A stretch of DNA of 64,000 nucleotides from Candidatus Forterrea multitransposorum CG_2015-17_Forterrea_25_41 (GCA_009392915.1 CP045477.1:640001-704000); one strand, 5' to 3'; shown: positions 2 through 56,530, counted from the first letter of the stretch. Numbers and translations are program-made. Notes: generated from the sequence alone by a model not told the origin.

Positions 2-322
2 GATGTTGAGCAAAGATTAATTGTTTCAAATGTTATTAAAAGCGTTATCTTAAAGACAGAAAAAAGTGCTTTAGTTGTAGATCATGATCTTTTATTTGTA
101 GACTATATTTCAGATAGAGTTCTTTTATTCCAAGGAGAAGCCTCTGTTAAAGGTTTTGCAAACAAAATAGATAAAATAGAAGCTTCTTTTAATAAATTTT
201 TAAAAGAACAAAACATGACTTTTAGACAAGATCCTGATACTAAAAGACCAAGAGCAAATAAACCAGACTCACAAAAAGATAAAGAACAAAGAAAAGATAA
301 TAGTTATTATTATACTATTTAA
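2..322 (+). CDS. ABCE1 (RNase L inhibitor / ribosome recycling ATPase) C-terminal fragment, 5' end outside window
   Basis: Frame 2 translates without stops to ...VVDHDLLFVDYISDRVLLFQGEASVKGFANKIDKIEASFNKFL...FRQDPDTKRPRANKPDSQKDKEQRKDNSYYYTI*. This matches the conserved ABCE1 C-terminus (FRRDP..RPRINK..S.KD.EQK..G.YFF). Stop at 320-322. Confidence 0.6.
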   Translation, partial: DVEQRLIVSNVIKSVILKTEKSALVVDHDLLFVDYISDRVLLFQGEASVKGFANKIDKIEASFNKFLKEQNMTFRQDPDTKRPRANKPDSQKDKEQRKDNSYYYTI

Positions 323-819
323 GGTCTTCTTTGGAAAATAATTTCTGCAGAAATATAATTATCTACAATTGAAACATTACAATCAGATAAATCACCAGAA
401 ACATCTATTTCTTTATCAAAATAAACTTCTTTTGAAATTTCAGAAGTAATATTTGAAGATTGATTATTACATAATAAATCTAATTTTCCAGAATATCTGT
501 CTCCTGAAAGAGCAGAATTTTCAATTGTAATATCACAATCAAGGCTATTTTTATTTGTTTCATTTAACATAGATGAAAGATAATTATTAACTCTTGAATC
601 ATAATTATTTTTTGTTGCAATTGAACAACTATTAAAAGTTTCATCCAGCAAAGAATCTACAACAATATTATCTGCTGATAAGGCTAAAAGAGAAACATGA
701 TTATAAGAATTTGTTATAACTTCTGTGTTATCAGAAATAATTATTGAAGGAGTTAAAAAAACTATAACAATTAATAAAATAATTCCACTAAACAAACCTT
801 TTTCCATCAAACCCCTCAC
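319..819 (-). CDS. archaeal type IV pilin-like protein (class III signal peptide)
   Basis: N-terminus MEKG|LFSGIILLIVIVF has K-G followed by a hydrophobic helix, like prepilin peptidase (PibD/FlaK) sites. Cys-containing, rich in N-x-S/T sequons; fourth gene of a tandem pilin-like array. Confidence 0.45.
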   Translation of the reverse strand: MRGLMEKGLFSGIILLIVIVFLTPSIIISDNTEVITNSYNHVSLLALSADNIVVDSLLDETFNSCSIATKNNYDSRVNNYLSSMLNETNKNSLDCDITIENSALSGDRYSGKLDLLCNNQSSNITSEISKEVYFDKEIDVSGDLSDCNVSIVDNYISAEIIFQRRP

Positions 820-1090
820 AATAAACTTTAGTTTCTAAATCATTATAACCATTATCAGTTGAAGTAAAATCATAATAAAAATATTCAGTACACCAGTAAT
901 ACTCAGCTAGACTTGTAACTTCTCCTTCTCCTGAATTAAACTCATTGTAGTTAAGTGAATTTAAAATTACTTGCTTATCTGTATTAACTGACCTATAAAC
1001 AACAAAAGTTGTAAGTGTTAAAAACAAAATAAATATCATTACATAATGAAGAGTTGTAATTGTTAAAATATATCCTTTATTTTGTTTCAT
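788..1090 (-). CDS. small pilin-like protein (class III signal peptide)
   Basis: MKQNKG|YILTITTLHYVMIFILFLTL: a charged patch with K-G and then a TM helix. 100 aa; sits in the array with three other pilin-like genes. Confidence 0.4.
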   Translation of the reverse strand: MKQNKGYILTITTLHYVMIFILFLTLTTFVVYRSVNTDKQVILNSLNYNEFNSGEGEVTSLAEYYWCTEYFYYDFTSTDNGYNDLETKVYCEGFDGKRFV

Positions 1091-1600
1091 TTATCTCCAC
1101 ACCTTTAAATTTAGTTCTTGTTTAGTATCTAAAATATTATCATTACCAGATAAACTATCAATATACCTTTTTTTATTAATTGCAAAGTTTGGTGTAATTG
1201 AAACATTAAAATCTATAGAATAATAATTATCAATTGATGGATCTAAAACATCAGTACATTCATTTGTAGTAAAAGCATAACTTGTAAGAGAACATTTATA
1301 GTTTGTAGGAATCCCTAGATTGTTTTTTGAAATATTTGAATTTTCAGTAAGGCATGCAGGAATATGATATCTATTATGAGAATCAAAAGCATAACAATTA
1401 ATATATGGATTATTAACTATATTTTTAAAAGCCATTTTTCCAACATTGTTTAATTGAGAATTAATATTATCTGTTGTTGTAGAATAAACTTTTGATTCAA
1501 CAATATTTACTAAAAGGAAAGAAACAAGTATGATTAGAACAACTGAAAAAAGAATATCTAAAACCATAATTTGTCCTTTTTTATTTTTAATCATAATCAA
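1091..1600 (-). CDS. archaeal type IV pilin-like protein
   Basis: MIMIKNKKG|QIMVLDILFSVVLIILV: KKG-Q then a hydrophobic stretch with an acidic residue near +6, the classic class III signal peptide. Many N-glycosylation sequons. Confidence 0.5.
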   Translation of the reverse strand: MIMIKNKKGQIMVLDILFSVVLIILVSFLLVNIVESKVYSTTTDNINSQLNNVGKMAFKNIVNNPYINCYAFDSHNRYHIPACLTENSNISKNNLGIPTNYKCSLTSYAFTTNECTDVLDPSIDNYYSIDFNVSITPNFAINKKRYIDSLSGNDNILDTKQELNLKVWR

Positions 1601-6248: not shown

Positions 6249-6662
6249 ATGGTTGTTAAAGATTCATTGAATGATTTTAAAAAAATTAGTAGTCTAGATT
6301 CATCTTGTCAAGAACTGCATATTACAAAGTCTTTTTCAATAAAAATAATTACAAAAATAATTACAAAATGTAAAAGACTAAAGTTAATAACACTTTCAAA
6401 AACAACAAAAGAAAGAATGGGTGAAAATACAAAAAAATTATTAAAATCAAAAAAAATAGCCCTTCAGATTAAAAATGAACAAGGAAGACCTATTGATATA
6501 CCTGCATCAAAACTTAAAAAAATTATTGAGATGCACAAAGATTTTTCATACAGAGAACTTGAAGAAAAATTAAAAGTTCCAAAAAGCACTATTCATTATT
6601 TAATTAGAAAATCTAAGAAAAAGAAATTAAAAGATGGAAAGAAAATTATTTATTTAAAATAA
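6249..6662 (+). CDS. hypothetical small protein with C-terminal HTH
   Basis: A C-terminal HTH-like segment is followed by a K-rich tail. Contains an internal IITKIITK repeat from a 12-nt tandem repeat. No family assignment. Confidence 0.3.
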   Translation: MVVKDSLNDFKKISSLDSSCQELHITKSFSIKIITKIITKCKRLKLITLSKTTKERMGENTKKLLKSKKIALQIKNEQGRPIDIPASKLKKIIEMHKDFSYRELEEKLKVPKSTIHYLIRKSKKKKLKDGKKIIYLK

Positions 6663-7137: not shown

Positions 7138-7485
7138 TTAAGCAATTCCTTCAGTATTTGATTCATCCTTTGGTTTATCTTCTTTTTTGTTTTCTTTAGA
7201 TAAATCATTTAATCTTTTTAAAGTGTCGTTTTCTTGTTTTTCAACAGTTTTTAATCTTAATTCAACTGTTTCTTTAGTTTCTTTTGTTTCTTTAATAACA
7301 TCAGTTTTATCTTTTAAAATAAAAATGTTACCAACACCTTTGTAAACTTTAGTTTCTTTTGTATTTTCAAGTTCTTTAACTGTGCTATCTAACACATTTA
7401 CTTGAACTTGTAATTGTTGTTTTTGTTGAGATAAATACATTAATTGTTGTCTATAAGTATTTACCATATTATTATCTTTACTCAT
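7138..7485 (-). CDS. pfdB: prefoldin beta subunit
   Basis: Coiled-coil protein of 115 aa: QQLQVQVNVLDSTVKELENT...VYKGVGNIFILKDKTDV...LRLKTVEKQENDTL. This matches the prefoldin-beta pattern and sits at the distal end of the exosome superoperon. Confidence 0.7.
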   Translation of the reverse strand: MSKDNNMVNTYRQQLMYLSQQKQQLQVQVNVLDSTVKELENTKETKVYKGVGNIFILKDKTDVIKETKETKETVELRLKTVEKQENDTLKRLNDLSKENKKEDKPKDESNTEGIA

Positions 7486-7730
7486 TTTAAATCCACCTCA
7501 TAAACTTTAGAAATTAATTCTAAAAGATTTATGTAATTATTAATTGTTGCTTTAAAAGCAATAATATCTTTAGCATAAATCTCAATAACTAATTTCTTAT
7601 TTTCAATAGTTATTCGAGAATTTGAACGATCATATTTTTTTCTATCAATTTCAAGATCTAAAATTTCTTTTAAATCTTTTGGACTTTTTGTTTTTATTTC
7701 AAAAACAATTGAAAGAACTTGATCAATCAA
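7482..7730 (-). CDS. KEOPS complex subunit Pcc1
   Basis: 82 aa. The C-terminal half (ITIENKKLVIEIYAKDIIAFKATINNYINLLELISKVYEV) aligns with Pyrococcus Pcc1 (IDFKLEGKKIILDIKATDSSALRGTVNSYLRWIKAAIDVIEV). It occupies the conserved superoperon position. Confidence 0.6.
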   Translation of the reverse strand: MIDQVLSIVFEIKTKSPKDLKEILDLEIDRKKYDRSNSRITIENKKLVIEIYAKDIIAFKATINNYINLLELISKVYEVDLK

Positions 7731-8196
7731 AATTACTCACTTTAACTATTTTAAATTTAAATCCTAAATATTCTTCATTTTCAAGAAAATTAAAGACATT
7801 TTCTTCTGATGTTTGAAAAACACCAAAATTACTTTTTAAAGACAAATATTTTTTTTCAAGAAAATAAAATACTTTTTTTAAATCATTAAAAGAAGAATTT
7901 ACTGAAGAAATATATGAAAAAGACTTTAAGTGTCTTAAATCAATAACTTCAATTAAATATTCTCTTTCAAGAAAATAACTATCTTCTCTTAAAGCATAAA
8001 CTGAAAGTAAGATATTTCCTTTAATAGAAGAAACTATTAAAAAATATCTATGTCCTAAATATAATGCTTGTTTAAAAAATTTTAAAAGAGGAGTTTTTCC
8101 TCTTGGCAAATAATTCATTCCAGGAAGATATTTTGTAAGATATTTAGAAAATCTTTTTTCTAAAAGATTTGATTTCCTAGAAACTGTCACAAACAT
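7723..8196 (-). CDS. Brix-domain (Imp4-like) ribosome biogenesis protein
   Basis: MFVTVSRKSNLLEKRFSKYLTKYLPGMNYLPRGKTPLLKF...LGHRYFLIVSSIKGN matches the archaeal Brix signature (TTSRkPS...R.F.keL...P...y.RGk). Confidence 0.7.
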   Translation of the reverse strand: MFVTVSRKSNLLEKRFSKYLTKYLPGMNYLPRGKTPLLKFFKQALYLGHRYFLIVSSIKGNILLSVYALREDSYFLEREYLIEVIDLRHLKSFSYISSVNSSFNDLKKVFYFLEKKYLSLKSNFGVFQTSEENVFNFLENEEYLGFKFKIVKVSNFD

Positions 8197-8198
8197 AT

Positions 8199-8327
8199 TT
8201 AATTTGCCTTAATCTTTTTTAAAACAGGTTCTCTTTTTTTATAAAATATTCTAGAACCGCAAACTCCACATTTATCATTTTCTGGAATTGCATCATATTC
8301 AGTTTTACATCTTGCACAATAATACAT
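8199..8327 (-). CDS. rpoP: DNA-directed RNA polymerase subunit P (RpoP / Rpb12-like)
   Basis: Hand-translated 42 aa: MYYCARCKTEYDAIPENDKCGVCGSRIFYKKREPVLKKIKAN*, a CxxC...CxxC zinc ribbon. Lies between L37ae and Brix as in other archaea. Confidence 0.65.
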   Translation of the reverse strand: MYYCARCKTEYDAIPENDKCGVCGSRIFYKKREPVLKKIKAN

Positions 8328-8339
8328 TATTTTTCACCT

Positions 8340-8564
8340 TTAATTCTTTGAAGAAAGTTTATATGCAGCACCTGCTATTTCAGTTTTACATTTTGAACAT
8401 GTAAATATAGCAGAATCTCTTTTTGAAATTCTTCCCTTATATCCACAATTAGGACATACATAAGAAGATTTATCTGTTTTAGTTGCAAGAAGATATTTTT
8501 GTCTAATTCCTCTTCCGCCTCTAACACCATATTTTCCGGTTTCTTTTACTTTTTTTGTAGCCAT
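8340..8564 (-). CDS. rpl37ae: ribosomal protein L37Ae (eL43)
   Basis: MATKKVKETGKYGVRGGRGIRQKY...YVCPNCGYKGRISKRDSAIFTCSKCKTEIAGAAYKL is the canonical eL43 Zn-ribbon. Confidence 0.85.
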   Translation of the reverse strand: MATKKVKETGKYGVRGGRGIRQKYLLATKTDKSSYVCPNCGYKGRISKRDSAIFTCSKCKTEIAGAAYKLSSKN

Positions 8565-8576
8565 TTTAAATCACAT

Positions 8577-9383
8577 TTATTCTAAAGCCTCTATTTTTTT
8601 TAAAATTTCATTGTATTTATTTACAGAAATATCAACCATTGTAAAAATTTCTTCTTCAGTAAAAACACCATTTTTACTTTTTTGACAAGAAACAACAGTA
8701 TCTTTTACAAGACCTAAACTAAATCTTGCATCTGAAGCATATTCTTCTGATTCTGTAGGATCAACAATTATTTTTCCTTCAATTTTTTCAAAAGTAAAAC
8801 TTAAAGGAATATTTAAAAGTTCTAATTTTTTATCAGAATATTCTTTTGAAATAATATTATTTTTTTCATCAAGTTTTGGTATCTTAGCGTTTTTTAAAGC
8901 TGCAAGAGCTGCAATTTCAGTTGCATCAATTAAATTACCATCAGCATTAATTGCAATACAATCAACGAAAATAATAAATACTTTTTCTCCTGCGACAATT
9001 GAAAGTTTTTTAAAATCTATTGCTTCTGCAGATCTTATTGCTCTATCAGCAACTCTTCCATACTCAAGAGCATCTATTTGTGGAGGACCTGTTGAAAAAT
9101 CAGGAGAAGAAATTCCAGTAAGCTCTAAGTTAAGAGACATGCTTCCTTCATCTGGAGAATCTGGATATGGTGTTCCTACTGCAAATTTAATTCCAGCAAC
9201 AATTTCTGTTTTTCCAAGTTTAACCCAAGCAGAACCATCTGCTGAAGACAAAACTGAAGTTTTAATTTCAAGATCTCTAAAATCTTCAAATCCTCTATTA
9301 TCTTCTCTTTTTCCATTTTTTATTTTTTCTTTAATGCTTCCCGCATTAATTAAATTTAATATATCACTCATTAATATCACCAT
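8577..9383 (-). CDS. rrp42: exosome complex RNase PH-like subunit Rrp42
   Basis: RNase PH fold (ADGSAWVKLGKTEIVAGIK...). Non-catalytic partner directly downstream of Rrp41, overlapping it by ~20 nt. Confidence 0.85.
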   Translation of the reverse strand: MVILMSDILNLINAGSIKEKIKNGKREDNRGFEDFRDLEIKTSVLSSADGSAWVKLGKTEIVAGIKFAVGTPYPDSPDEGSMSLNLELTGISSPDFSTGPPQIDALEYGRVADRAIRSAEAIDFKKLSIVAGEKVFIIFVDCIAINADGNLIDATEIAALAALKNAKIPKLDEKNNIISKEYSDKKLELLNIPLSFTFEKIEGKIIVDPTESEEYASDARFSLGLVKDTVVSCQKSKNGVFTEEEIFTMVDISVNKYNEILKKIEALE

Positions 9384-10068
9384 TTACAGGGTATTTTTCA
9401 AGTAAAGCATTCTTTTGAAGAGCATATACTTTTTCTGCAGCTGAAAAACCCATTGAAACCATTTTTTTCCAATCGTCTTTGTTTACAAAACCATCCATTT
9501 GTAAAAGAGCAATTTCTTTTTGAGGCATAGTAATTGCAATTGCAGTGTCAACTGCATCAGGTGCATCTTCTTCATCTTTAGTTAAATCATAGATTAAATC
9601 TCCATTTGCTCTTCCAATAGCAACCGCTGAAACTAAACCTTTCATTGGAAGACCTGCATCTGCACATGCTAAAGAAGCTGCTGTTAAAGCTGCAACTCTT
9701 GTACCTGCATCAGCTGAAAGAATTAATGTGTTTACATTAATAACTGTGTTTGGAAATTTTTCAGTCATAATAACAGATTCTAAAGCAAAACCTGAAACTA
9801 AAGAAATTTCTTTATCTCTTTTTCCAGGAACTGGAGATTTTCTATCAGAAACTGAAAAAGGAGCCATTCTATATCTATAATCTACAACTGCTCTTTGAGA
9901 ATTTGACAAATGTTTTGGAAACATTGGTCTTGGTCCGTGAACTGTTGCAACAACTGTGTTTTTACCCCATTCAAGATAACATGAACCAGCAGCACTTTTT
10001 ACAACTCCAAGTTCTATCTTGATTGGTCTTAAATCATCTTTTTTTCTACCATCTAATCTTGTACTCAT
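9364..10068 (-). CDS. rrp41: exosome complex catalytic subunit Rrp41 (RNase PH)
   Basis: MSTRLDGRKKDDLRPIKIELGV...AAGSCYLEWGKNTVVATVHGPR...LSADAGTRVAALTAASLACADAG carries the RNase PH signatures. Confidence 0.9.
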   Translation of the reverse strand: MSTRLDGRKKDDLRPIKIELGVVKSAAGSCYLEWGKNTVVATVHGPRPMFPKHLSNSQRAVVDYRYRMAPFSVSDRKSPVPGKRDKEISLVSGFALESVIMTEKFPNTVINVNTLILSADAGTRVAALTAASLACADAGLPMKGLVSAVAIGRANGDLIYDLTKDEEDAPDAVDTAIAITMPQKEIALLQMDGFVNKDDWKKMVSMGFSAAEKVYALQKNALLEKYPVNGDINE

Positions 10069-10074
10069 AATTTA

Positions 10075-10698
10075 TCACTTTAATTTATTTTTTTCAAAAA
10101 AATCTTTTACACTGTTTGTAAGATTTGATTTTTGAGAATTTTTTACAACTAATGAAAATGCTCTCTTTGCAAGGGATACATCTTCTGAGTTATACCAAAT
10201 CCATCCATTTTTACCAATAACTATATTTCCACCTAAATGTTCTTTAAATAAATTTAGCATAGATTCATTTTTACCAATAAGTCTTGGTATCTTAACTGGA
10301 GAGGTTTGAAAAACTCTTGCTTTTGGTAAAATATTTATGTTATCAAACTCTAAAGAACCATTGTCTGCTATATTTTTAATTCTTAAAAAAACAACAGTAC
10401 CAATAGCAAGTTCTTTTCTAATATTTGATTTTAAAAGAAAAGAATCATCAAAAGAATTATATTCTAAAATATAACCATTAAGCACTTCATCTTTTACAAC
10501 AGCAATAATTCCATCTCCAGATATTGGAGAATAAGGGCCGTTTAAAGGTATTACTGAAACAAAATCATTTGATTCAGATAGAATACCAATAATTGAACTA
10601 TATATTTTGTTGTTTTCAAAATAAACATTTTGTCCTAATTTTTTTACCTGATCTGTTATTAAGTCGCCAGGAACAACTATTTTTTTTTCTGTATTCAT
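10075..10698 (-). CDS. rrp4: exosome RNA-binding subunit Rrp4 (S1 + KH)
   Basis: N-terminal VVPGDLITD, S1-like core, and KH motif IGKNGWIW near the C-terminus. Confidence 0.85.
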   Translation of the reverse strand: MNTEKKIVVPGDLITDQVKKLGQNVYFENNKIYSSIIGILSESNDFVSVIPLNGPYSPISGDGIIAVVKDEVLNGYILEYNSFDDSFLLKSNIRKELAIGTVVFLRIKNIADNGSLEFDNINILPKARVFQTSPVKIPRLIGKNESMLNLFKEHLGGNIVIGKNGWIWYNSEDVSLAKRAFSLVVKNSQKSNLTNSVKDFFEKNKLK

Positions 10699-10710
10699 AT
10701 TTTATCACAT

Positions 10711-11436
10711 TTAATTTTCATCAACAACAGTTGCAACTAAATTCCCATGAGTTAAATTATTAAGATCAGAAACTAAATTTTGTTTTTGACCTGCTGGAAT
10801 TTTTATTTTTGCAACTAATGCACCGCTTGAAAGCCATTTTTGATCTACAATTTCTTGTTTGTAGATTACAGATGATATTTTTCCTGCATAATTTGCAGGA
10901 ACTTCAACCATTAAAATAATTTTTTCAAAAGAGATTGGCATTATTCTTTTTAATTTATCTACAATTTCTTCAATTTCTTTTTCTTTGTGTTTACTTAAAT
11001 TTATTTTAATTTTAAGTTCTTCAAAAGCATTAACTATTCTTTGTTCAGGAATAGGAGTTTTGTTTTTAGGATCATGAGCATATTTTGAAATATAATTAAT
11101 TATTTCTTTTTCTCTTTTTTCCATCATTAATTGTTTTTGAGCAGTTGTTAATTGAACATCTCCATCTTTAACAATTTTTTCTGCTATTTTAAAAACATCT
11201 TCAGTTTCAAAATGTTCTAAAAGTAATTCTCTTGAAGCAACATTTGATTTTTGAAGATCAGAATAAACTTCTTCATAAGCTAAAACATCTTCAATCTTTA
11301 AATCAGATTTTCCAAGTCTAAAATCCCATGCTTGGAAAGGATATACTAAAATTTCAAAATTATGATCTGCTCTTTTAATTTTGGCAACAACTGTATTTTC
11401 TAAATTACCTTTATTTTTTTCACCCTTATAAAACAT
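10711..11436 (-). CDS. SBDS/Sdo1 ribosome maturation protein homolog
   Basis: VVAKIKRADHNFEILVYPFQAWDFRLGK..IEDVLAYEEVYSDLQKSNVASRELLLEHFETEDVFKIAEKIVKDGDVQLT matches the SBDS N-terminal FYSH domain. 241 aa, conserved superoperon position. Confidence 0.8.
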   Translation of the reverse strand: MFYKGEKNKGNLENTVVAKIKRADHNFEILVYPFQAWDFRLGKSDLKIEDVLAYEEVYSDLQKSNVASRELLLEHFETEDVFKIAEKIVKDGDVQLTTAQKQLMMEKREKEIINYISKYAHDPKNKTPIPEQRIVNAFEELKIKINLSKHKEKEIEEIVDKLKRIMPISFEKIILMVEVPANYAGKISSVIYKQEIVDQKWLSSGALVAKIKIPAGQKQNLVSDLNNLTHGNLVATVVDEN

Positions 11437-11453
11437 AATTACTCATATCCTCC

Positions 11454-11852
11454 TTAACCTTTTAATTTTTTATTAACATTTTTTAAAATTTCTAAAACTT
11501 CTTTACCTTCTTTTCTATTGATAGCTTTTGAAAATTCTTTTATAAACTCATTATGTTTTTCTGTTTTTGAAAAACTCCATAAAAATTTACTAAAAATATT
11601 CTCAAACAAAGTCTCTGCTTTTTCTTTTTCAACTTTAGAAAGACCATTTACTTTATGTTTTACTCTTGCAGATAAAATTTTATGATTTGCAAGCATTTTT
11701 TGATCTAAAACAACACCTGTACTAAATTTAGATGCATTTGATTTATTTTTCACAAAAGTTTCAGCTAAACTTTTATATTCCTGAATAGAAGGATGTTTTT
11801 TTAAATTTTTAAGATAAGGATTTTTTTTTAATGCAGGATTATTACTTTTCAT
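11454..11852 (-). CDS. uncharacterized small basic protein, paralog A of a tandem pair
   Basis: 132 aa, Lys-rich. Shares blocks NHKILSARVKHK / INRKEGKEVLEIL with the neighbour at 11865-12260. No known family recognised. Confidence 0.4.
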   Translation of the reverse strand: MKSNNPALKKNPYLKNLKKHPSIQEYKSLAETFVKNKSNASKFSTGVVLDQKMLANHKILSARVKHKVNGLSKVEKEKAETLFENIFSKFLWSFSKTEKHNEFIKEFSKAINRKEGKEVLEILKNVNKKLKG

Positions 11853-11864
11853 ATTTTTTTCACT

Positions 11865-12260
11865 CTAAATATATTTTTTTGAAATTTCCATTAATATTTC
11901 TAAAACTTCTCTACCTTTTTTTCGATTTATCTTTTCTGCAAAAACTTTTGAAAATTCAAAATATTTTAAACAACAATTTTTTTCTTCTAAAAGATTTAGT
12001 TTATTATAAATCTTATTTAAGAGAGAGAGTGCTTTTTTCTTGTCTTCAACAGGTAAATTTTTTAGTTTATTTGAAACTCTAACACTTAATATTTTATAGT
12101 TTACTAAATTTCTTTCAATTAACATATGTTTCTTTAAAACTTTATCTGTGGTTCCTTTAAGTTTTGTTGCAAATCCCTTATAATGACTAACAGTATGAGA
12201 TTTTTTTAAATCTGTTATCATTTTATTTTTTTTCAATGAAGGAAGATTTGTTTTTGGCAT
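11865..12260 (-). CDS. uncharacterized small basic protein, paralog B of a tandem pair
   Basis: 131 aa. NYKILSVRVSNK / INRKKGREVLEIL is paralogous to the preceding ORF. Inserted between psmA and SBDS. Confidence 0.4.
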   Translation of the reverse strand: MPKTNLPSLKKNKMITDLKKSHTVSHYKGFATKLKGTTDKVLKKHMLIERNLVNYKILSVRVSNKLKNLPVEDKKKALSLLNKIYNKLNLLEEKNCCLKYFEFSKVFAEKINRKKGREVLEILMEISKKYI

Positions 12261-12283
12261 ATTTTATTTAACACTTAATATTT

Positions 12284-13006
12284 TTAAATTAATTTAGAAT
12301 ATTTTTCAAAAGGTACAACAGAATCGTTATTATCATTTATGTGTATTACTTCTATATTCTTTGAATCTAATTTTTGTTTAGCTTCAAGATTTAAAGATAA
12401 AGTTTTAATTGCAAGTTTTAAAGCATCTTCAAAATTTAAATTATCTTTATAATTCTTTTCTAAATGTGCCATTAATTTTGGTTTATTTTGACCAATAGCT
12501 ATAGCTTTATAAGCTGTTGTTGCTCCACTTGGTTCTATTTCATAAATATGTTTTCCTAATGAATCAATACCTGCAACAATTAAAGAAACACCAAAAGGTC
12601 TTGCTCCTCCATATTGTGTAAAATATTGAACTACATTTCCAACTTTTTTAACTAAAGTATCAATTTCTATAGGATCGTCATAGTAAACTTTATTTTCTTG
12701 AGCCATTTGTCTTGAATAATCAACTAAACGTCTACCATCTCCAATAAGTCCAGAACAAGCAACCCATACATGTTTATCAACTTTAAAAACTTTCTCAACA
12801 GAAGATGGAATTACAAGTGATGAAAAGATTTTTTTATCAGCAACTAAAACAATTCCTTCTTTGTAAGTTACAGCAACAGCTGGACTTCCTTTTTCAATTA
12901 TTTTAGAAGCATAATCAACCTGGTATAAATGTCCTTCAGGACTAAAAACTGTTATTGATCTGTCATATGCTTGTGCCATTGCATTATTATTAGAAATTGG
13001 AAACAT
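12284..13006 (-). CDS. psmA: proteasome subunit alpha
   Basis: YDRSITVFSPEGHLYQVDYA is the proteasome-alpha signature; 240 aa. Confidence 0.95.
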   Translation of the reverse strand: MFPISNNNAMAQAYDRSITVFSPEGHLYQVDYASKIIEKGSPAVAVTYKEGIVLVADKKIFSSLVIPSSVEKVFKVDKHVWVACSGLIGDGRRLVDYSRQMAQENKVYYDDPIEIDTLVKKVGNVVQYFTQYGGARPFGVSLIVAGIDSLGKHIYEIEPSGATTAYKAIAIGQNKPKLMAHLEKNYKDNLNFEDALKLAIKTLSLNLEAKQKLDSKNIEVIHINDNNDSVVPFEKYSKLI

Positions 13007-13200
13007 ATTTTATTCACCTTTTTTTTCCTTTAATTATAATTATAAATAAAAATAGCTTTTTTTAAGATAAAATACTAATTAATAAAAAGCTATTAAATAA
13101 TAGCTAAAAATACTTAAACTTTAGTTACCTCTACTATTCTATACTATATATTATTATAGCAACAGATATAAAAACATTATGATTAATAAAAATATACAAT

Positions 13201-13518
13201 TTAATCTAATGATTTAAGAGTAGAAACTTGCTTAGTTACATAAACTAAACCTAAATCTTGCTTTAAATAGAAAATAGATGTTAAAAAAGAATCTTTGTAA
13301 TCTTTATTAATCCTAACAATTGCTGTGTTTTTTGTTGACTTCATTAAAGTAATATTTGCATTAACTAAACTAAACAAACCAAAAATATTTTGATAATTTT
13401 TTAAAAACAAACTAAAAAGATTATTAGAATATTCCTTTGTAAACTCTAACTTAAAATATATTTTTTTATGTCTTAAAGTTGGTCTTATAACATTTAATTT
13501 TTTTTTTAGTTTCACCAT
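13201..13518 (-). CDS. RNase P protein component Pop5 (Rnp2)
   Basis: VIRPTLRHKKIYFKLEF matches the Pop5 N-terminus (LRPTWRERHRYIAFEI). ~105 aa, conserved position upstream of psmA. Confidence 0.6.
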   Translation of the reverse strand: MVKLKKKLNVIRPTLRHKKIYFKLEFTKEYSNNLFSLFLKNYQNIFGLFSLVNANITLMKSTKNTAIVRINKDYKDSFLTSIFYLKQDLGLVYVTKQVSTLKSLD

Positions 13519-14132
13519 TTATTATCAACCATCCCTTTTGATAAGATTTTTAAAATAAATGATTCTTCTAAATCAAAATTTTTTAATAAACTAAATAAAA
13601 TATCTCTTGAAACTAAATCTTCTTTTGTTTTTGCAAAAGACGCAAATGTAAAATCAACTAGATGTATTTTTAAAAGGTTTACAATAAATAAATTTTGTTT
13701 TAAATATTTATTTTGTAATGGTTTATCTCTTAATAGATTATAATTAAAAATAACTTTTACTTTATGTTGAAAACAAGATCTTGCATTTTGTTCATCAAAA
13801 ATCAATTTATCAGAAAGTGGATTATATAAAAAAGGAATATTTTTACTTGTTGAAATTACTGTATTATTTTTTAAAGATTGAGAAGTTACTAAAAATAATT
13901 CTTTTTTTTTATAAAAATGTGCAAGAGAAGGTTCTTTTAAAAGATAAGCTTTCTTAAGTTTTAATATTTTTGATTTAGGTAAAATAAAATCTTTTTCTAA
14001 ATCTTCTTTTTTAGATATTTCTCTAAAAACATAGATATTTTTTATATTTAATTTTGTAAAAGTCTCTTCTAAATCTTCAATAGAATATTTTTCTATTAAA
14101 TCATCCATTACAAAATCAAATGTATTTTTCAT
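13512..14132 (-). CDS. probable RNase P protein component Rpp30 (Rnp3)
   Basis: 206 aa, translationally coupled upstream of Pop5 as in the canonical superoperon. The sequence is divergent, so the assignment rests mostly on position and size. Confidence 0.4.
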   Translation of the reverse strand: MKNTFDFVMDDLIEKYSIEDLEETFTKLNIKNIYVFREISKKEDLEKDFILPKSKILKLKKAYLLKEPSLAHFYKKKELFLVTSQSLKNNTVISTSKNIPFLYNPLSDKLIFDEQNARSCFQHKVKVIFNYNLLRDKPLQNKYLKQNLFIVNLLKIHLVDFTFASFAKTKEDLVSRDILFSLLKNFDLEESFILKILSKGMVDNKW

Positions 14133-14136
14133 AAAA

Positions 14137-15843
14137 TCACATTTTACTAGGAACTTTTATGCCTAAAAGATTTAAAGCATTATTTAAAGTAATTAAAAAA
14201 GCTTTAATTAATAATAATCTAGTATTTTTTGTATTTTCATTAACAACTAATACAGGACAATTAGTATAGAATTTATTAAAGATATGAGAGAGTTCTAAAA
14301 CATAATTAACCATTACATGTGATTTATAGCCTTTATATGAGACAAATACTTTTTCTTTAAAATCATTTATTTTTAAAGCTAATAAAATTTCATCTTCTTC
14401 TAAAGAATAATCAATAATTAAAGAATCTAAAGATAAATCACTTGAATTTGATTTTTCTAAAATACTTTTAGCTCTAACCCCACTATATTGAACATATGGA
14501 GAAGAATCTCCTTGGAAATCAAGAGCAGAACTTATATCAAATACAATTGTTTTATTTAGATTTGTTTTAAGCATTTCAAATTTAATAACTCCAAAAGATA
14601 TATCTCTAACAATAGAATCATCAAAATCTAAACCATTTTCAATTAATTTATTTTTAACTCCAGAAAACAAAGAATCTCTGAAATCTTCATAAAGAAAACT
14701 CTCGCCTTCTCTTGATTTCATTTTCCCTTCAGAAGTATTTATAAGTCCATGATTAATATGGAAGTGTGTTGTTGAAGGATAAATAAAAGAAAATAATTTA
14801 AATAATTGTTTAAAATAAAAATCTTGTTCACTTGCAACTACATATAAAAAATCATTACAAGAAGGATATCTTTCTTTTTTTAAAGAAACTAAACCAATAT
14901 CTTTTGCTCCATAAAGAGCAGCACCATTTTGTTTAATTAAAATAAAATTACCTAAAGATTCATCTTTTAAATCAGCTACAATAGCGCCATCATCTTCTAA
15001 AAATAATTCTTTATTTTCAGAAAATAATTTATCTTTAACTTCAAAAAATCTTTTTTCAGTATCAGATTCAAAAAAACTACTATCTAAATAAACATCAAGT
15101 TCTTTTCCAACATCCATGTAAGCTTGATGACTTTTATTTGCTAAATTTTTAATTTCTTCTTGAAGAGAACTTGATTGCATAATTTCTACTTGAAGAGAAT
15201 CAATTTCTTTAGTATAAACTTCTTTATTTTCTTCTAAAAGTAAACCTGCTTTAATATAGATACTTCCAAACCATTTAGAAACATCTTTATCAGGAATTTG
15301 CTTTTCTGAATCTGTTAGTTTAGAATAATACCAATACCATTTAGCAACATGAGTTCCTATATCTCCACCATAGGAAACAGGTTTAGGATCTGCTCCAACA
15401 AAGGTTAAAATTCTTGAAACAAAATCACCAGTTACAATGTTTCTTACATGTCCTATATGTAAAGTTTTTAGAGGATTTGCATTAAAGGTATCAATAACAT
15501 ATTGTTTATCATCTATTTTTAATGAACCATACTCTTTATCTTTTGTTAAAACTTCAGTAATTGTTTCTTTTAAAAGAAGAGAATCATTTATTTTTGCATT
15601 AAAATAACCATTAACTTCAGAAAAAGTAAATACTTCATTTGAAGGTATCTTTAAGTATAAATCTTTAGAAATCTCTTGAGGAGATTTTTTTAAAATTTTA
15701 GAAACTGCAAAACAAGGAAATGAAAGATCCCCTAAATCTCTTGAAGGAGGACTTGAGGTTAAGTTAAGTATCTCTTGAAAAGATTTAACATCATCTTTTA
15801 AAACTTGAAAAATAGAGTCTGCAAATAATTTTTTATAATCCAT
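14137..15843 (-). CDS. argS: arginyl-tRNA synthetase
   Basis: Class I HIGH motif (LKTLHIGHVRNIVTGD), N-terminal Arg-tRNA add-domain, and C-terminal DALR-type anticodon-binding region; 568 aa. Confidence 0.9.
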   Translation of the reverse strand: MDYKKLFADSIFQVLKDDVKSFQEILNLTSSPPSRDLGDLSFPCFAVSKILKKSPQEISKDLYLKIPSNEVFTFSEVNGYFNAKINDSLLLKETITEVLTKDKEYGSLKIDDKQYVIDTFNANPLKTLHIGHVRNIVTGDFVSRILTFVGADPKPVSYGGDIGTHVAKWYWYYSKLTDSEKQIPDKDVSKWFGSIYIKAGLLLEENKEVYTKEIDSLQVEIMQSSSLQEEIKNLANKSHQAYMDVGKELDVYLDSSFFESDTEKRFFEVKDKLFSENKELFLEDDGAIVADLKDESLGNFILIKQNGAALYGAKDIGLVSLKKERYPSCNDFLYVVASEQDFYFKQLFKLFSFIYPSTTHFHINHGLINTSEGKMKSREGESFLYEDFRDSLFSGVKNKLIENGLDFDDSIVRDISFGVIKFEMLKTNLNKTIVFDISSALDFQGDSSPYVQYSGVRAKSILEKSNSSDLSLDSLIIDYSLEEDEILLALKINDFKEKVFVSYKGYKSHVMVNYVLELSHIFNKFYTNCPVLVVNENTKNTRLLLIKAFLITLNNALNLLGIKVPSKM

Positions 15844-15894: not shown

Positions 15895-15967
15895 CGAGTC
15901 CGGAGGGATTCGAACCCTCGACCCACAGCTTAGAAGGCTGTTGCCCTATCCACTAGGCCACGGACCC
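15895..15967 (-). tRNA. tRNA-Arg (anticodon TCT)
   Basis: Reverse complement: GGGTCCG-TG-GCCT-AGTGGATA-GGGC-A-ACAGC-CTTCTAA-GCTGT-GGGTC-GAGGG-TTCGAAT-CCCTC-CGGACTC-G. Anticodon loop CT-TCT-AA. No CCA encoded. Confidence 0.8.
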
Positions 15968-27198: not shown

Positions 27199-27269
27199 AG
27201 CCTCAATAGGGAGTCGAACCCTATTCTTCCGCTCTGCAGGCGGATGCATGACCGTTCTGCCATTGAGGC
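27199..27269 (-). tRNA. tRNA-Cys (anticodon GCA)
   Basis: Reverse complement: GCCTCAA-TG-...-TCCGC-CTGCAGA-GCGGA-AGAA-TAGGG-TTCGACT-CCCTA-TTGAGGC plus discriminator T (U73 is typical of tRNA-Cys). Short D-arm with a 3-bp stem. Confidence 0.6.
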
Positions 27270-52350: not shown

Positions 52351-53292
52351 TTAAAAACTAATTAAAATAACCATCACAATAATCATAAACAAAGCTTGCA
52401 AAGGAAGAGCAGGCATTGCCTTAAATTTATATTTCTTTAAAAGATAAAATGTTAAAAATAAACCTAAAAGAGAAGAAAGTAAAACTAAAGAAACATAGAG
52501 AAGAGAACAAAACAAAGTTATTTTAGAGCTTAAAAAGAAATAAAAAGAAGAAGCCACAACTAAAGGAATTACTAAATCTCCTCCACCTAACTGATAGGTT
52601 TTTTCTTTTGTTGGAATATAAAAGATTAAAGCCATTTTAGTTTTTGAAAATGTTTTTGCTAAAGTTATCATGTGCTTTGTATAGAAAACAGCAATAATAT
52701 CATAAATAGATAAAAGAATTAAAAAAACTAAAACAGGAATAAAACCTAAAGAAAGCCCAATTATTGATCCTGCTCCTGCAATAGAGATTGCAAGAAGTAT
52801 ATTATTGTACCAAGAAACTAGGTTTAAAGATAGTTTTTTGCTTTTATCCATTAAATATTTAATAAATAAAAAAATTACTGTTAAGTACATTGCAAGAGTT
52901 TCAAAAAAGAAAACATCAAAAACAATTGTAATACCAACAAATAAAGCTAAATATTCAAATATTCTTAAATAAGAGGTTTTTTTTGAAAATCTTTTTATTA
53001 AAAGAATAATTCCTGTAACTACAAGAATTTGAACAATTATGAAAACAGAATTAATAATATCATCAGGATTATCAGTGATTAAAGCAATTCTTAGATCTGT
53101 TAAAGAAGAATAATAAGATGCAGTGTAAAGTCCTATGACTTGAACAATTACAAAAATGATTATTAAGTAAAATATAAAAGATGTTGAAAAAGAAGTTTCT
53201 TTAAAAGACTCTTTTTTACTATTCTTAAGAGGTTTATCCTTCTTAAGAGGTTTATCCTTTTTAACAAATTTTGTTTCTTTTTTAGAGCTCAT
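52351..53292 (-). CDS. presenilin/signal-peptide-peptidase homolog (A22 intramembrane aspartyl protease)
   Basis: Polytopic; YD in a TM helix (LSIYDIIAVF), GxGD (QLGGGDLVIP) and PAL (AMPALPL) in the canonical order. N-terminal K-rich cytoplasmic tail. Confidence 0.6.
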   Translation of the reverse strand: MSSKKETKFVKKDKPLKKDKPLKNSKKESFKETSFSTSFIFYLIIIFVIVQVIGLYTASYYSSLTDLRIALITDNPDDIINSVFIIVQILVVTGIILLIKRFSKKTSYLRIFEYLALFVGITIVFDVFFFETLAMYLTVIFLFIKYLMDKSKKLSLNLVSWYNNILLAISIAGAGSIIGLSLGFIPVLVFLILLSIYDIIAVFYTKHMITLAKTFSKTKMALIFYIPTKEKTYQLGGGDLVIPLVVASSFYFFLSSKITLFCSLLYVSLVLLSSLLGLFLTFYLLKKYKFKAMPALPLQALFMIIVMVILISF

Positions 53293-53819
53293 TTTCTACC
53301 ATGCTTTTTAATTAAAATATTTGTTTTTGGTTTTATTTTTTTAAATTTATCAATATACATTTCAGATTTTTTTTCTAAAGAATATTCTTTTTTAAAAGAT
53401 TTATTTCTTCGATTAACTATATCTTCATTTATAGAATATATTTTTTTAGAAATCACAGCACCACTCTCTATTTTTTCAACCTTATATTTAGAAGACATAA
53501 AAGTTGTAACTCTTAGTTTTAGTTTTCTACCTAAACCTTTATTTTGAAAATCAGGATGAATATAAAGATTATTTATAAAAAAAGATTTATTCTTTAAATT
53601 TCCTTGACAAACACCAACAATCTTTGAATCTGATTTTAGTAAAAATAAATGAGTGTTTTTCTTTAAAAGATCTTTTTTAAAAAGAGAAACTTCTCTTGAA
53701 GTGAAATTTTGAATCTTTGTTAAATATTGCATCAATATTGAAAAAGTCTCATTAACTTCACTTCTGTTTTTAATAAATTCAGATATATTTTCTGAAGAAT
53801 AATGTTTATAATTAATCAC
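53289..53819 (-). CDS. GNAT-like acetyltransferase
   Basis: IHPDFQNKGLGRKL matches the GNAT motif A region. Paralogous N-terminus with the neighbour. Confidence 0.45.
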   Translation of the reverse strand: MINYKHYSSENISEFIKNRSEVNETFSILMQYLTKIQNFTSREVSLFKKDLLKKNTHLFLLKSDSKIVGVCQGNLKNKSFFINNLYIHPDFQNKGLGRKLKLRVTTFMSSKYKVEKIESGAVISKKIYSINEDIVNRRNKSFKKEYSLEKKSEMYIDKFKKIKPKTNILIKKHGRK

Positions 53820-53822
53820 AAC

Positions 53823-54326
53823 TTATTTCCTCTTTAAACTTGTTTTTTTAAAAACCTTAAAAGATTTTTTAGAAAATAAAGTATCTTGAAAATAACTAAT
53901 TCTTTTTGATTTATTTTCTCTAGAGAACATTTTTTTAAAAGAATTTGTTGTTTCTGGAGATAAAATATAACTTGATTCAAAATGTTTAATATCTTTTTTA
54001 ACTCTTAAATATCCAATTGCTCTTGTAATTAGCTTTTGCTCAATCAACGATTTGTTTGTTCCTTTTAAAACAAAAAAATGATTTAAAGTAAAATGATCTT
54101 TAAAAACACTACCTTGAGCAATTGCAATTAATTTTTTATTTTCAAAAGCCATAAACAAAGAAGTATTTAAGACATCTTTTAAAAGTTGATTTTTTATTTT
54201 TTGAGAATAAGAAATTGGAATTTTTTCAACATTAAAATAAATTTTATAAACTTCTTTTAAAAATTCTGGTTTATGAATTATTTTTTCATAAATCTCATTT
54301 CCAAAATATTGTTTGTAAGTTATCAT
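53823..54326 (-). CDS. GNAT-like protein, degenerate paralog
   Basis: N-terminus MITYKQYFGNEIYEKI is paralogous to MINYKHYSSENISEFI of the previous gene. The acetyl-CoA motif is degenerate. Confidence 0.35.
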   Translation of the reverse strand: MITYKQYFGNEIYEKIIHKPEFLKEVYKIYFNVEKIPISYSQKIKNQLLKDVLNTSLFMAFENKKLIAIAQGSVFKDHFTLNHFFVLKGTNKSLIEQKLITRAIGYLRVKKDIKHFESSYILSPETTNSFKKMFSRENKSKRISYFQDTLFSKKSFKVFKKTSLKRK

Positions 54327-54391: not shown

Positions 54392-56530
54392 CTAAAAAGC
54401 ATCAGGCTCTGTTGCTTTTAAAAGACCAGATCTAGGTTCATAAATATCCCCTATTTTCTTAAGCTTTGAAATAGCATCCATTACTTTATCTTTATCATGA
54501 CCTTCTTTTGTTGTAAAATCAATAAACTCTTTTGTGGTAATAGGATCTTTTGAAGATAAATCTTTTAAATATTTTAAAACAACTTTAATAAAGTTTCTCT
54601 CACTTTGAGATTGACCAGTCTGCAAAATATCAATATCAATCTTACCAGTCTCTTTATCCATAGCAACTTGCTCTAAAGAAGTTTTAAATATCCTAATTGC
54701 TCTTTGAGCATCTTCTGCATCAATGGTTTTTTTAAGTTTTATTTTAGCACTAGCTTCAGATAATCTTATAAAACCTTCAAGCTGTCTTGGTGTTGCAGTA
54801 AAACTTCTATTTTTTCTACCTAAATCTCTTAACTCAACATAATATTTTAAAATAATATCAGAAGCTTCTTTTGAAAGAACAGGACGTATATTCTGTCTTG
54901 CAAAAGCTACAAATTTTTTAAAAAGATTAGGATCAATTGAAGGAAGTATTTCTTTTTCAATATCATTTAATTCTTCTTTTGAAATAGTTTTATCTCTACC
55001 AGATAATTTTTCTGCAAGTTCTTGAGTTCTTAAAACATGTTTTGCAATATCTGAATCCATTTGTCTATCTAAAAGATCTGGAATTACAAAATAAAGATCA
55101 AATCTTGAAAGAAGAGAAAAAGGTAAGTCAATTTGTTCTAAAGGATTCTTATAAGGATCAAACCTATTGTATTTTGGATTTGCAGCAGCTAAAACTGATG
55201 TATCAGCTCTAAATTTACTATATAAACCTGCCTTAGATACAGAAACTGTAGCTTGAGCCATTGCTTCGTGAAGAGAAGATCTATCATCTGCACCAATCTT
55301 ATCAAACTCATCAATCATTGCAATTCCACCACTTGCTAAAATAATAGCACCGGCTTTTAAAGTCCAACCACCTTCTCCATATTCATCTTTCACAGCAGAA
55401 ACTGTAAGACCAGCACCAGAAACTGTTTTTCCTGCAACATATATACTTTTTGGAGCTAAAATATTTGCATATTCTAAAATTTTAGATTTACCAGTAGAAG
55501 GATCTCCCACAAGAAGAATATGTATGTTTCCTCTAAACTTTTGTTTTGCAATTTCTTTTTTAACACCACCAAACATTTGTAAGGTTACAGCTTCTTTTAC
55601 AACTTCATGTCCAAAGATATTAGGAGCAACTGATTTTGATAATAATTGATAAACATCTTCTTTTTTTGAAAGAGCTTTAATATCTTGTTCTTCTTCATAA
55701 GATATTTTTAATTCTTCATACTCTTGATCTATTTTTTCAATATGGTTTGCAACTAGATATCTTGAAAAAATATTAATGTCTCCTTTTGGAGGTCTTAATT
55801 TTAATGTACCAGTTACAATTATTTTATCTCCAGCTGAACATCTATTAACTAAATCATCTGATAAATAAACATCTATGTTAGAGGCTTGTTCTGAACCTTT
55901 TAAGTTTTCTAAAGGTTCTTGAATTTGTATTTTTTGATAATCAATAAATTTAGATTGTTCTAAATCTAAATCAAACTCTCTAGATTTACATTCATTACAC
56001 ATTACAGGTTTTACAAGTTGTTGTGTTTTTTGAGATAAAACAACTGGAGTTGAACATTTTCTACAAATATAATAAGCTTGAGTTAATTTTTCTAATTTTT
56101 CAGTAATAACTCTTATTGTTCCTTCAACAGAGACAAGATCAGTTAAATGTTCAGAACCAACTTCCCTTATTGAAACTCTGTATTCTTCAGGAAGATTAAA
56201 AAATCTTACAATAGGTTCAAAATTATCTTCAATTTCTGAATCTAAAATACCAAGATCTATTTTTTTAATAGCAACATTTGCTGCTTCAAAAATAATACCT
56301 GGAGAAGATAATAACCTTTCTGCTAAATTTAGATCAAAATCTTCTAATTTTTTATAATCAATATCTAATGATTTTTTTGTAGGATAATTAGAGGCTAATT
56401 GTTCAATTTCTTTTTTATAAACATCTTCAAAAAAATCTATAAAGAGATCAACATATTCATCAACTAAAATACTCTTTGATTCTTTAATATCAAACTCGTT
56501 TAATTCTTTTTCAAGATCTATATCAACCAT
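54392..56530 (-). CDS. mcm: MCM replicative helicase
   Basis: Zn finger (CRKCSTP...CNECKS), Walker A GDPSTGKS, Walker B IDEFDKI, arginine finger SRFDL, and a C-terminal wHTH. Confidence 0.95.
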   Translation of the reverse strand: MVDIDLEKELNEFDIKESKSILVDEYVDLFIDFFEDVYKKEIEQLASNYPTKKSLDIDYKKLEDFDLNLAERLLSSPGIIFEAANVAIKKIDLGILDSEIEDNFEPIVRFFNLPEEYRVSIREVGSEHLTDLVSVEGTIRVITEKLEKLTQAYYICRKCSTPVVLSQKTQQLVKPVMCNECKSREFDLDLEQSKFIDYQKIQIQEPLENLKGSEQASNIDVYLSDDLVNRCSAGDKIIVTGTLKLRPPKGDINIFSRYLVANHIEKIDQEYEELKISYEEEQDIKALSKKEDVYQLLSKSVAPNIFGHEVVKEAVTLQMFGGVKKEIAKQKFRGNIHILLVGDPSTGKSKILEYANILAPKSIYVAGKTVSGAGLTVSAVKDEYGEGGWTLKAGAIILASGGIAMIDEFDKIGADDRSSLHEAMAQATVSVSKAGLYSKFRADTSVLAAANPKYNRFDPYKNPLEQIDLPFSLLSRFDLYFVIPDLLDRQMDSDIAKHVLRTQELAEKLSGRDKTISKEELNDIEKEILPSIDPNLFKKFVAFARQNIRPVLSKEASDIILKYYVELRDLGRKNRSFTATPRQLEGFIRLSEASAKIKLKKTIDAEDAQRAIRIFKTSLEQVAMDKETGKIDIDILQTGQSQSERNFIKVVLKYLKDLSSKDPITTKEFIDFTTKEGHDKDKVMDAISKLKKIGDIYEPRSGLLKATEPDAF

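Follow-up and report, generated by a model that had tools for sequence, protein, structure and literature searches.

A Lineage-Specific Orphan Family of Small Basic Proteins Between psmA and SBDS in an Archaeal Exosome/Proteasome Superoperon

Introduction

What are the two small genes that separate psmA from SBDS in the gene array described here, how did they come to lie there, and which of the neighbouring machines might their products serve? The superoperon is among the most conserved arrays of archaea, and functions have been predicted from membership in it, SBDS being the classic example; in its canonical archaeal form, psmA and SBDS are directly adjacent. The array is referred to as the "predicted exosome superoperon" of archaea in a passage of PMC2695463, which cites Koonin, Wolf and Aravind 2001.

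The whole stretch of DNA that was analysed, 64,000 nucleotides long and called the window below, carries two open reading frames at this junction, ORF A on the SBDS side and ORF B on the psmA side. An earlier note, made from the sequence alone, had described them as tandem paralogous small basic proteins assignable to no family, and had suggested from their position a role in RNA processing or ribosome biogenesis. A search of the literature found no paper on the A/B family or on insertions into the superoperon in DPANN archaea.

Results

Gene Order and Spacing of the Locus

Both genes lie on the minus strand, ORF A at positions 11454..11852 (132 aa, pI 10.1) and ORF B at positions 11865..12260 (131 aa, pI 10.0). 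Directly upstream of the insert is psmA, which encodes the 240-aa proteasome alpha subunit (12284..13006, minus strand; Pfam Proteasome, E = 4.6e-53, and Proteasome_A_N), and directly downstream is the gene for the 241-aa ribosome maturation factor SBDS (10711..11436, minus strand; Pfam SBDS_N, SBDS_domain_II and SBDS_C). Further downstream, the minus strand carries Rrp4 (10075-10698), Rrp41 (9364-10068), Rrp42 (8577-9383), L37ae (8340-8564), RpoP (8199-8327; 42 aa with CxxC..CxxC), a Brix-like gene (7723-8196), Pcc1 (7482-7730) and the prefoldin beta gene PfdB (7138-7485). Upstream of psmA, it carries a Pop5-like gene (13201-13518) and a 206-aa ORF in the position of Rpp30 (13512-14132).

Rrp4, Pcc1 and PfdB are identified by Pfam, and Rrp41, Rrp42, L37ae and RpoP by precomputed Pfam matches on orthologous loci. 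The superoperon order proposed in the earlier note therefore stands for most of the genes on the evidence of Pfam, but it is weak for Brix, with a weak NCBIfam match (E = 5e-5), and for Pop5, with a sub-threshold Rpp14 match (E = 6e-4), and it is only positional for the Rpp30 ORF, which is named by position alone and has no family match of any kind. PF01900 is matched by the Pop5 orthologs of two relatives, L022 and L023.

Compared with the archaeal exosome/proteasome superoperon, the genes here follow the same order and are tightly packed on one strand; the differences are the one or two extra genes, of no recognised family, between psmA and SBDS, and an ArgRS gene joined at the upstream end in the insert-bearing clade and its sisters. 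What is new at this locus is the extra component, specific to the lineage, of an otherwise known superoperon.

The insert and its neighbours are separated by short spacers on the minus strand: 23 nt between psmA and B (12261..12283), which is too short for a promoter and has a weak Shine-Dalgarno-like "aagtg", 12 nt between B and A (11853..11864; "gagtga", Shine-Dalgarno-like), and 17 nt between A and SBDS (11437..11453; Shine-Dalgarno "aggagg"). From psmA to SBDS, each start codon is preceded at 6–10 nt by a G-rich patch of this kind. The only promoter-sized gap near the insert is the very AT-rich stretch of 194 nt upstream of psmA (13007..13200, minus strand), which ends in the Shine-Dalgarno sequence "aaggtga". 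Because the spacers are tiny and the sole large gap lies upstream of psmA, we infer that psmA, B, A and SBDS are co-transcribed with the exosome genes downstream, with a putative promoter in the 194-nt gap. With Rfam models, no RNA gene was detected within the region or next to it; the window's only RNA genes, three tRNAs, lie elsewhere.

Paralogy and Composition of A and B

A and B are true paralogs, as the earlier note had claimed, since BLASTP aligns them with 40% identity over 130 aa (E = 6e-22). The shared blocks that it had pointed out were also found, namely NHKILSARV and NYKILSVRV in one place and INRKEGKEVLEIL and INRKKGREVLEIL in the other.

The description of the two proteins as small, basic and Lys-rich is likewise correct, though these properties are moderate for a genome of ~22% GC. 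Lys makes up 21% of A and 21% of B, against a median of 12% for the 67 ORFs of the window, and the pI values of 10.0–10.1 compare with a window median of 9.1, 13% of the same 67 ORFs having a pI of 10 or more. The GC content of the A and B genes (0.21–0.24) is below that of the core genes (0.25–0.35). A begins with a basic N-terminal tail, PALKKNP..LK.LKK. It lacks Cys altogether; B has a pair of adjacent Cys residues that is not conserved in P0012. The copies found in single-copy lineages resemble the A type most closely.

Family Searches

When A, B and further members were scanned against Pfam, NCBIfam, PHROGs and PADLOC, nothing significant emerged; the best matches of A and B in Pfam and NCBIfam, both below threshold, were TPPII_C (E = 0.012) and a model of a 5'-3' exonuclease, which scored 20 bits where 347 were required. 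Across 15 members, no Pfam family is recurrent even at E ≤ 10. Searches of the PDB with single sequences and with two profiles returned chance-level matches only. The inability to assign a family, which the earlier note had reported, is upheld by all of these searches. Placement in a superoperon family such as an RNase P subunit, which that note had named as the outcome that would make the pair ordinary, was looked for and did not occur: neither A nor B has a Pfam or NCBIfam match above threshold to Rpp30, Pop5/Rpp14, PsmA, SBDS, Rrp4, Rrp41/42, Csl4, L37ae, RpoP, Brix/Imp4, Pcc1 or prefoldin beta.

The RNase P subunits deserve separate mention. Rpp21 is a zinc ribbon with four Cys, Rpp29 an Sm-like barrel, Pop5 an alpha/beta protein, Rpp30 a TIM barrel and L7Ae an alpha/beta sandwich. 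Checked against these five, A and B have purely alpha-helical models, no Cys4 motif and no Pfam match.

Ribosomal protein L39e was tried as a candidate homolog and rejected. One microsporidian L39 was matched with the first profile, A1 (E = 0.19); it was a single match among the many L39e sequences of the PDB and was lost with the wider profile A2, and no member matches Ribosomal_L39 in Pfam.

The family is also very narrowly distributed. HMMER, run exhaustively over 1.84 billion representatives, found 11 proteins, and in a database of 5.8 billion proteins 5 and 3 clusters were matched, with "hypothetical protein" as the sole source name. Pattern and tblastn scanning located carriers in 2 of 185,579 GTDB species genomes and at three metagenome loci. 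According to these data, A and B are members of a taxonomically restricted orphan family with no recognisable relatives. In their narrow distribution, fast evolution, low GC content and lack of annotation, they are like other orphan small proteins of DPANN archaea; typical orphans are found at variable loci, whereas this family is fixed inside a highly conserved archaeal array and has been held in place while SBDS diverged to between 68 and 99% identity.

The occurrence of two small adjacent genes would also be expected of a selfish or defence module, either toxin–antitoxin-like or a mobile or viral remnant. We regard this explanation as effectively refuted, considering that A and B are paralogous to each other, rather than two different cognate proteins, and that 7 of the 11 lineages examined, including the one with the most diverged copy, have a single gene. 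In addition, the best E-values in PADLOC and PHROGs were 0.013–0.014, none of them significant, tblastn found no phage or plasmid relatives, and hmmsearch of six-frame ORFs from the window and 24 fetched loci found no other locus, no extra paralogs and no likeness to the C-terminal part of psmA.

Predicted Structure and Conserved Residues

The structure prediction proposed in the earlier note gave confident bundles that match no natural family specifically. AF2 models both proteins as all-alpha bundles, with pLDDT 81.8 and pTM 0.75 for A and pLDDT 83.7 and pTM 0.74 for B. In both models a short, less confident N-terminal segment is followed by helices at about residues 21–35, 45–67, 73–93, 98–112 and 117–131. 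The predicted fold is a compact basic bundle of ~130 aa with four long helices and one or two short N-terminal ones; a conserved Lys-rich tail at the N-terminus comes before it. Foldseek of the models against the PDB gave nothing better than E = 2.2, and the structural matches of both were generic or designed helix bundles only. Near the models are generic small up-down bundles that bind large RNP or protein complexes, such as the Zuotin four-helix bundle (6cgh, 7x34); the LYR-motif proteins NDUFA6, NDUFB9 and L0R8F8 are generic helical-bundle comparators in the same way.

The traits common to the family are a length of ~120–140 aa, the position between psmA and SBDS, the all-alpha bundle and a turn of the form I-N/D-R-K-E-G. 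Across the 15 sequences of alignment A2, 8 residues are invariant and 3 nearly invariant; the conserved positions, in the numbering of A, are Y26, N56, L60, R63, K67, L71, G116 and V119, and five of them (N56, L60, R63, K67 and L71) lie on the same side of helix 3. Lys or Arg occupies 8 of the 15 polar positions that are conserved (K10, K18, K52, R63, K67, K105, R113 and K114). All 15 members have a pI of 9.8–10.3 despite pairwise identities of 23–50%, and the first 20 residues have a net charge of +4 to +6. Such conserved charge would fit a surface that binds a polyanion such as RNA, though the basicity is in part compositional.

Distribution and Evolutionary History

A walk outward along the relatives, anchored on SBDS identity, was made for the synteny comparison. 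The gene or genes between psmA and SBDS were found in all 11 lineages examined, of which six have a single copy, one has a very diverged single copy and four have a tandem pair. The tandem pairs are those of the window, L007-L010/L012, L005/L013 and L001, and the single copies those of L003 (P0005), L011/L014 (P0011), L015/L016 (P0013), L017 (P0014), L018 (P0009) and L019/L020 (P0010). The tandem insert described in the earlier note is thus present in the window, but a tandem arrangement is not the starting condition: in most lineages there is one copy, and the duplication came later in one subclade.

In two sister lineages the insert is absent. In L022 (SBDS identity 62%) and L023 (56%) the order ArgRS-Rpp30-Pop5-psmA-SBDS-Rrp4... 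is kept, with 5 nt and 19 nt, respectively, from the end of psmA to the start of SBDS. Since psmA abuts SBDS in these two sisters, the insertion is lineage-specific, which answers the question of synteny that the earlier note had raised. The insert-bearing clade is one of low-GC archaea, and its closest public genomes are labelled Candidatus Iainarchaeum (Iainarchaeota, DPANN).

In a neighbour-joining tree of SBDS, the insert-bearing lineages form one clade that is sister to the insert-free ones. The bootstrap is 90–91% for the clade with the 241-aa SBDS and 52–68% for all insert-bearing lineages, and the latter value, coming from a single-gene tree, counts against the picture of a single origin. 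In the tree of the family itself, the B-type clade has 100% bootstrap, and the single-copy proteins P0009 and P0010 nest with L001_A, also with 100% bootstrap.

From these trees and the synteny, the most parsimonious history would begin with one gain, precisely between psmA and SBDS, in the common ancestor of a small low-GC DPANN clade. Rapid divergence would have followed, and then one tandem duplication, in the subclade that includes the window, which would have produced the A and B types. B would later have been lost secondarily, at least in the lineage of P0009 and P0010.

L021 (SBDS identity 70%) has a 136-aa ORF in the same psmA–SBDS slot; it is co-linear with the family and a borderline member of it, with an hhalign probability of 53% (E = 1.3e-4), and when the loci were searched locally with the HMM it ranked first among the non-members (hmmsearch E = 0.018). 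Its INRKEG turn has degenerated to ISRLPD. As this homolog is barely detectable, deeper homology of the family could be hidden.

The insert might accordingly be a housekeeping protein diverged beyond recognition (a small ribosomal protein, an accessory subunit of RNase P or the exosome, or a nucleoid protein) that was transferred to the superoperon as its canonical copy disappeared, and DPANN genomes do commonly lack canonical components or have strongly diverged ones. We nevertheless consider such an origin quite unlikely. The confident models of the two paralogs point to no particular natural family; they are all-alpha and have no Cys motif, whereas the known superoperon and RNase P proteins have beta-rich, alpha/beta or zinc-ribbon folds. 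The failure of the L39e match to survive the wider profile, and that of any Pfam family to recur among the members, points in the same direction.

Selection on A and B

In codon-level comparisons with three orthologous loci, dN/dS for A and B was 0.38 and 0.38 against L007, 0.56 and 0.30 against L005, and 0.55 and 0.44 against L001; the flanking psmA, SBDS, Rrp4 and Rrp41 gave 0.02–0.16 in the same comparisons. A and B are under purifying selection that is several-fold more relaxed than that on their neighbours, and they evolve 5–20 times faster. Intact ORFs in 11 lineages, dN/dS below 1, Shine-Dalgarno-like motifs ahead of the starts and confident models together show that A and B are genuine protein-coding genes. 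Evolution at this speed is unusual for a core component of the ribosome or of an RNA machine, which counts against an RNA or ribosome role.

Relaxed constraint of this order (dN/dS 0.3–0.56) is also what would be seen if the insert were a hitch-hiker. Such a gene would be young, confined to the lineage and fast-evolving; its function, whatever it is and perhaps marginal, would be unrelated to the neighbouring machines, and it would have landed in, and stayed at, a site that ensures constitutive expression. The extremely narrow distribution, the loss of B in one lineage, the decay of the most conserved motif in L021, the GC content below that of the core genes and the absence of a detectable ancestor in the HMM search of 1.84 billion representatives all agree with this explanation. 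On the other side, the same junction has been held across lineages whose SBDS proteins are 68–99% identical with no complete loss inside the clade, the duplicate has been kept in four lineages, 11 residues are invariant or nearly so over 15 sequences, and both models show a confident compact fold. In view of these data, a hitch-hiker is a possibility to be taken seriously, if on the whole a somewhat unlikely one.

The N-Terminal Extension of SBDS

When the N-termini of SBDS from 13 loci and from P0016-P0050 were compared, a derived N-terminal extension became apparent in the window, formed by codons 1–11 (MFYKGEKNKGN; 11404..11436, minus strand). Every 241-aa SBDS has the near-invariant form MFYKGEKNxGNLENT, and this form occurs only in insert-bearing genomes. 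The insert-free genomes have an SBDS with the ancestral start, and so does L003, in which the insert is present and SBDS begins with MVKLDD.... As L003 combines the insert with the ancestral start and the extension is never seen without the insert, the extension arose after the insertion.

In eukaryotic complexes, SBDS touches the peptidyl-transferase centre with its N-terminus, of which residues 1–6 reach into the exit tunnel (PMC6710477), so this end of the protein is functionally sensitive. The correlation between insert and extension is suggestive only of a link to SBDS, and the extension may be a by-product, a new upstream start that appeared when the junction was remodelled. It should be noted that the operon position favours psmA as a partner equally, which counts against the link to SBDS.

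Discussion

We hold the evolutionary and structural description of A and B given above with high confidence and regard it as well supported. The function is a different matter. Our best explanation is that this orphan basic bundle is an RNA- or ribosome-binding accessory factor tied to SBDS or the exosome, and to the whole statement, function included, we give a probability of roughly one in three (about 0.35).

According to this explanation, A and B would be co-transcribed and translated together with psmA, SBDS and the exosome subunits, and the product would act as a small RNA- or ribosome-binding helper in SBDS-dependent maturation of the large subunit or in RNA processing by the exosome. 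Binding would involve the Lys and Arg residues conserved along one side of helix 3, the conserved INRKEG turn and the basic tail at the N-terminus. Where there is a single copy, the protein would form a homo-oligomer, and where there are two, possibly an A/B hetero-oligomer. The role in RNA processing or ribosome biogenesis put forward in the earlier note is at bottom an argument of guilt by association, to which the conserved Lys and Arg residues and the correlation with the SBDS extension may add modest support. Since B can be lost and the INRKEG turn is degenerate in L021, no single motif is indispensable, which counts against this explanation.

A more far-reaching proposal, which we consider improbable, sees in the family a new subunit, specific to the clade, of a core archaeal machine. 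Its members could assist SBDS as a cofactor in the final maturation and the quality control of the large subunit, co-evolving with the unique SBDS extension; alternatively, the duplicated B could have become a new ATP-independent binder of the proteasome alpha ring.

The proteasome must be considered more generally: A or B, and especially B, might dock on the alpha ring of the 20S particle and, independently of ATP, regulate it, cap it or chaperone its assembly. Contact would be made through the penultimate Tyr of B (KKYI/KKYM), akin to the GQYL of the four-helix-bundle activator Bpa/PafE; Bpa, a small proteasome activator, depends on a conserved motif at its C-terminus, the penultimate residue of which is Tyr (PMC4254994). 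B likewise is predicted to be a small helical bundle, and it adjoins the alpha-subunit gene, starting 23 nt downstream of psmA, whereas bpa itself is not near proteasome genes (PMC4254994). The C-terminus of B, ...SKKYI, is kept as SKKY[IM] in four of four B-type orthologs that are overall only 40–43% identical.

The details of the C-terminus are less favourable. The HbYX class of alpha-ring binders (PAN, Cdc48, PbaA/PbaB, Blm10/PA200 and Bpa) is marked by a tripeptide of a hydrophobic residue, Tyr and X at the extreme C-terminus, borne on a flexible, accessible tail of an oligomer that forms a ring. When compared with this class, the B-type proteins end in K-Y-I or K-Y-M, and the Lys at position -3 is ruled out by published HbYX search criteria (PMC4254994). 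A penultimate Tyr occurs in 3 of the 67 ORFs of the window, equal to the background Tyr frequency of 4.5%, and the invariance of four of the last five residues, set against 36% invariant columns overall, corresponds to P~0.06. Because the motif is missing from the A-type and all single-copy members, docking by an HbYX-like motif cannot be the ancestral function of the family. Moreover, A and B have no sequence or fold match to Bpa/PafE, and the last helix of B in the model (117–130 of 131) leaves no flexible tail. Finally, B has a pI of 10, and this value is, to our knowledge, atypical of known proteasome activators. For these reasons, a proteasome role for B by way of KKYI is a weak lead, and we judge docking on the alpha ring decidedly improbable.

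The protein is compact, folds well and is unannotated, and as there are only two obvious candidate systems for its partner, SBDS with the ribosome and the 20S proteasome, the question of the partner is directly testable. If A and B were indeed a recruited subunit of a core machine, a protein lacking any detectable ancestor would have found a place inside an ancient, universally conserved array; if they were mere hitch-hikers, they would be of limited interest, the genomes of DPANN archaea being full of unannotated small proteins. As a stable lineage-specific addition, the insert indicates that even a highly conserved superoperon can accept new genes, and the family offers a small case study of the history of an orphan gene in reduced DPANN genomes, with gain, divergence, tandem duplication and loss.

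A minor observation concerns the C-terminus of psmA itself, where the sequence "EKYSKLI" is similar to the C-termini of two single-copy members, "EYEKLI" in P0013 and "KYNKLI" in P0014. We judged this likeness to be compositional, because psmA of the insert-free L023 has "DKYSKYL" at the corresponding place.

Genes flanking the insert

The SBDS protein encoded next to the insert (the genes for the paralogous orphan proteins A and B, or for a single family member, between psmA and SBDS) begins with a derived, near-invariant N-terminal extension, MFYKGEKNxGNLENT, whose first 11 codons lie at positions 11404–11436 (minus strand) of the window. We found it in the window and in loci L001, L005, L007, L011, L016, L017, L019, and L021, where SBDS is 241 aa long versus about 232 aa for the form lacking it, and it is restricted to genomes that also carry the insert; L003, a locus with a single-copy insert, retains the ancestral SBDS start. 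In eukaryotic SBDS, the N-terminus extends to the peptidyl-transferase centre and the exit tunnel (PMC6710477).

Within the insert, the B protein contains an adjacent Cys-Cys pair at residues 95–96 (12021–12026, minus strand), in a KNCCL motif that P0007 and P0008, also B-type, share with it; the pair is missing from the B-type ortholog P0012 and from every A-type and single-copy member.

On the other side, the psmA C-terminus (12287–12310, minus strand) reads ...FEKYSKLI and resembles those of P0013 (...QEYEKLI) and P0014 (...EKYNKLI), the single-copy members that have diverged furthest. Since psmA of the insert-free sister L023 ends in DKYSKYL, we judged this likeness to be a compositional coincidence.

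Ends of the superoperon

The upstream end of the superoperon is joined to the arginyl-tRNA synthetase gene (14137–15843, minus strand; also in L007, L011, L022, and L023) in both the insert-bearing clade and its insert-free sisters; in the window, 4 nt separate the end of this gene from a 206-aa ORF (13512–14132, minus strand), which in turn overlaps the Pop5-like ORF by 7 nt. The 206-aa ORF is named as an RNase P subunit (Rpp30) from its position only: with a threshold as loose as E ≤ 1, neither Pfam nor NCBIfam yielded a match for it or for the orthologs from L007, L021, L022, and L023. In L021, which has a very diverged single-copy insert, the array has received another lineage-specific insertion, an unannotated 440-aa ORF (191–1513, plus strand; no Pfam match) between the arginyl-tRNA synthetase gene and the gene in the Rpp30 position.

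At the downstream end, the 157-aa protein in the Brix/Imp4 position (7723–8196, minus strand) gave no Pfam match and no more than a weak NCBIfam match to "rRNA maturation protein" (E = 4.9e-5; 23 bits, where the cutoff is 171). High divergence is seen in several of this lineage's superoperon proteins. In every related locus, with or without the insert, prefoldin beta is followed directly by a conserved convergent gene (6249–6662, plus strand, in the window; also in L001, L007, L019, L022, and L023) encoding a 137-aa protein with 24% Lys and similarity to DUF1699 and HTH (HTH_SB).

Elsewhere, the window encodes an MCM helicase (712 aa; 54392–56530) and, at 52351–53292 and 53289–54326, a presenilin-type signal-peptide peptidase and two adjacent GNAT acetyltransferases, all on the minus strand, as well as three tRNAs (2706–2778, 15895–15967, and 27199–27269).
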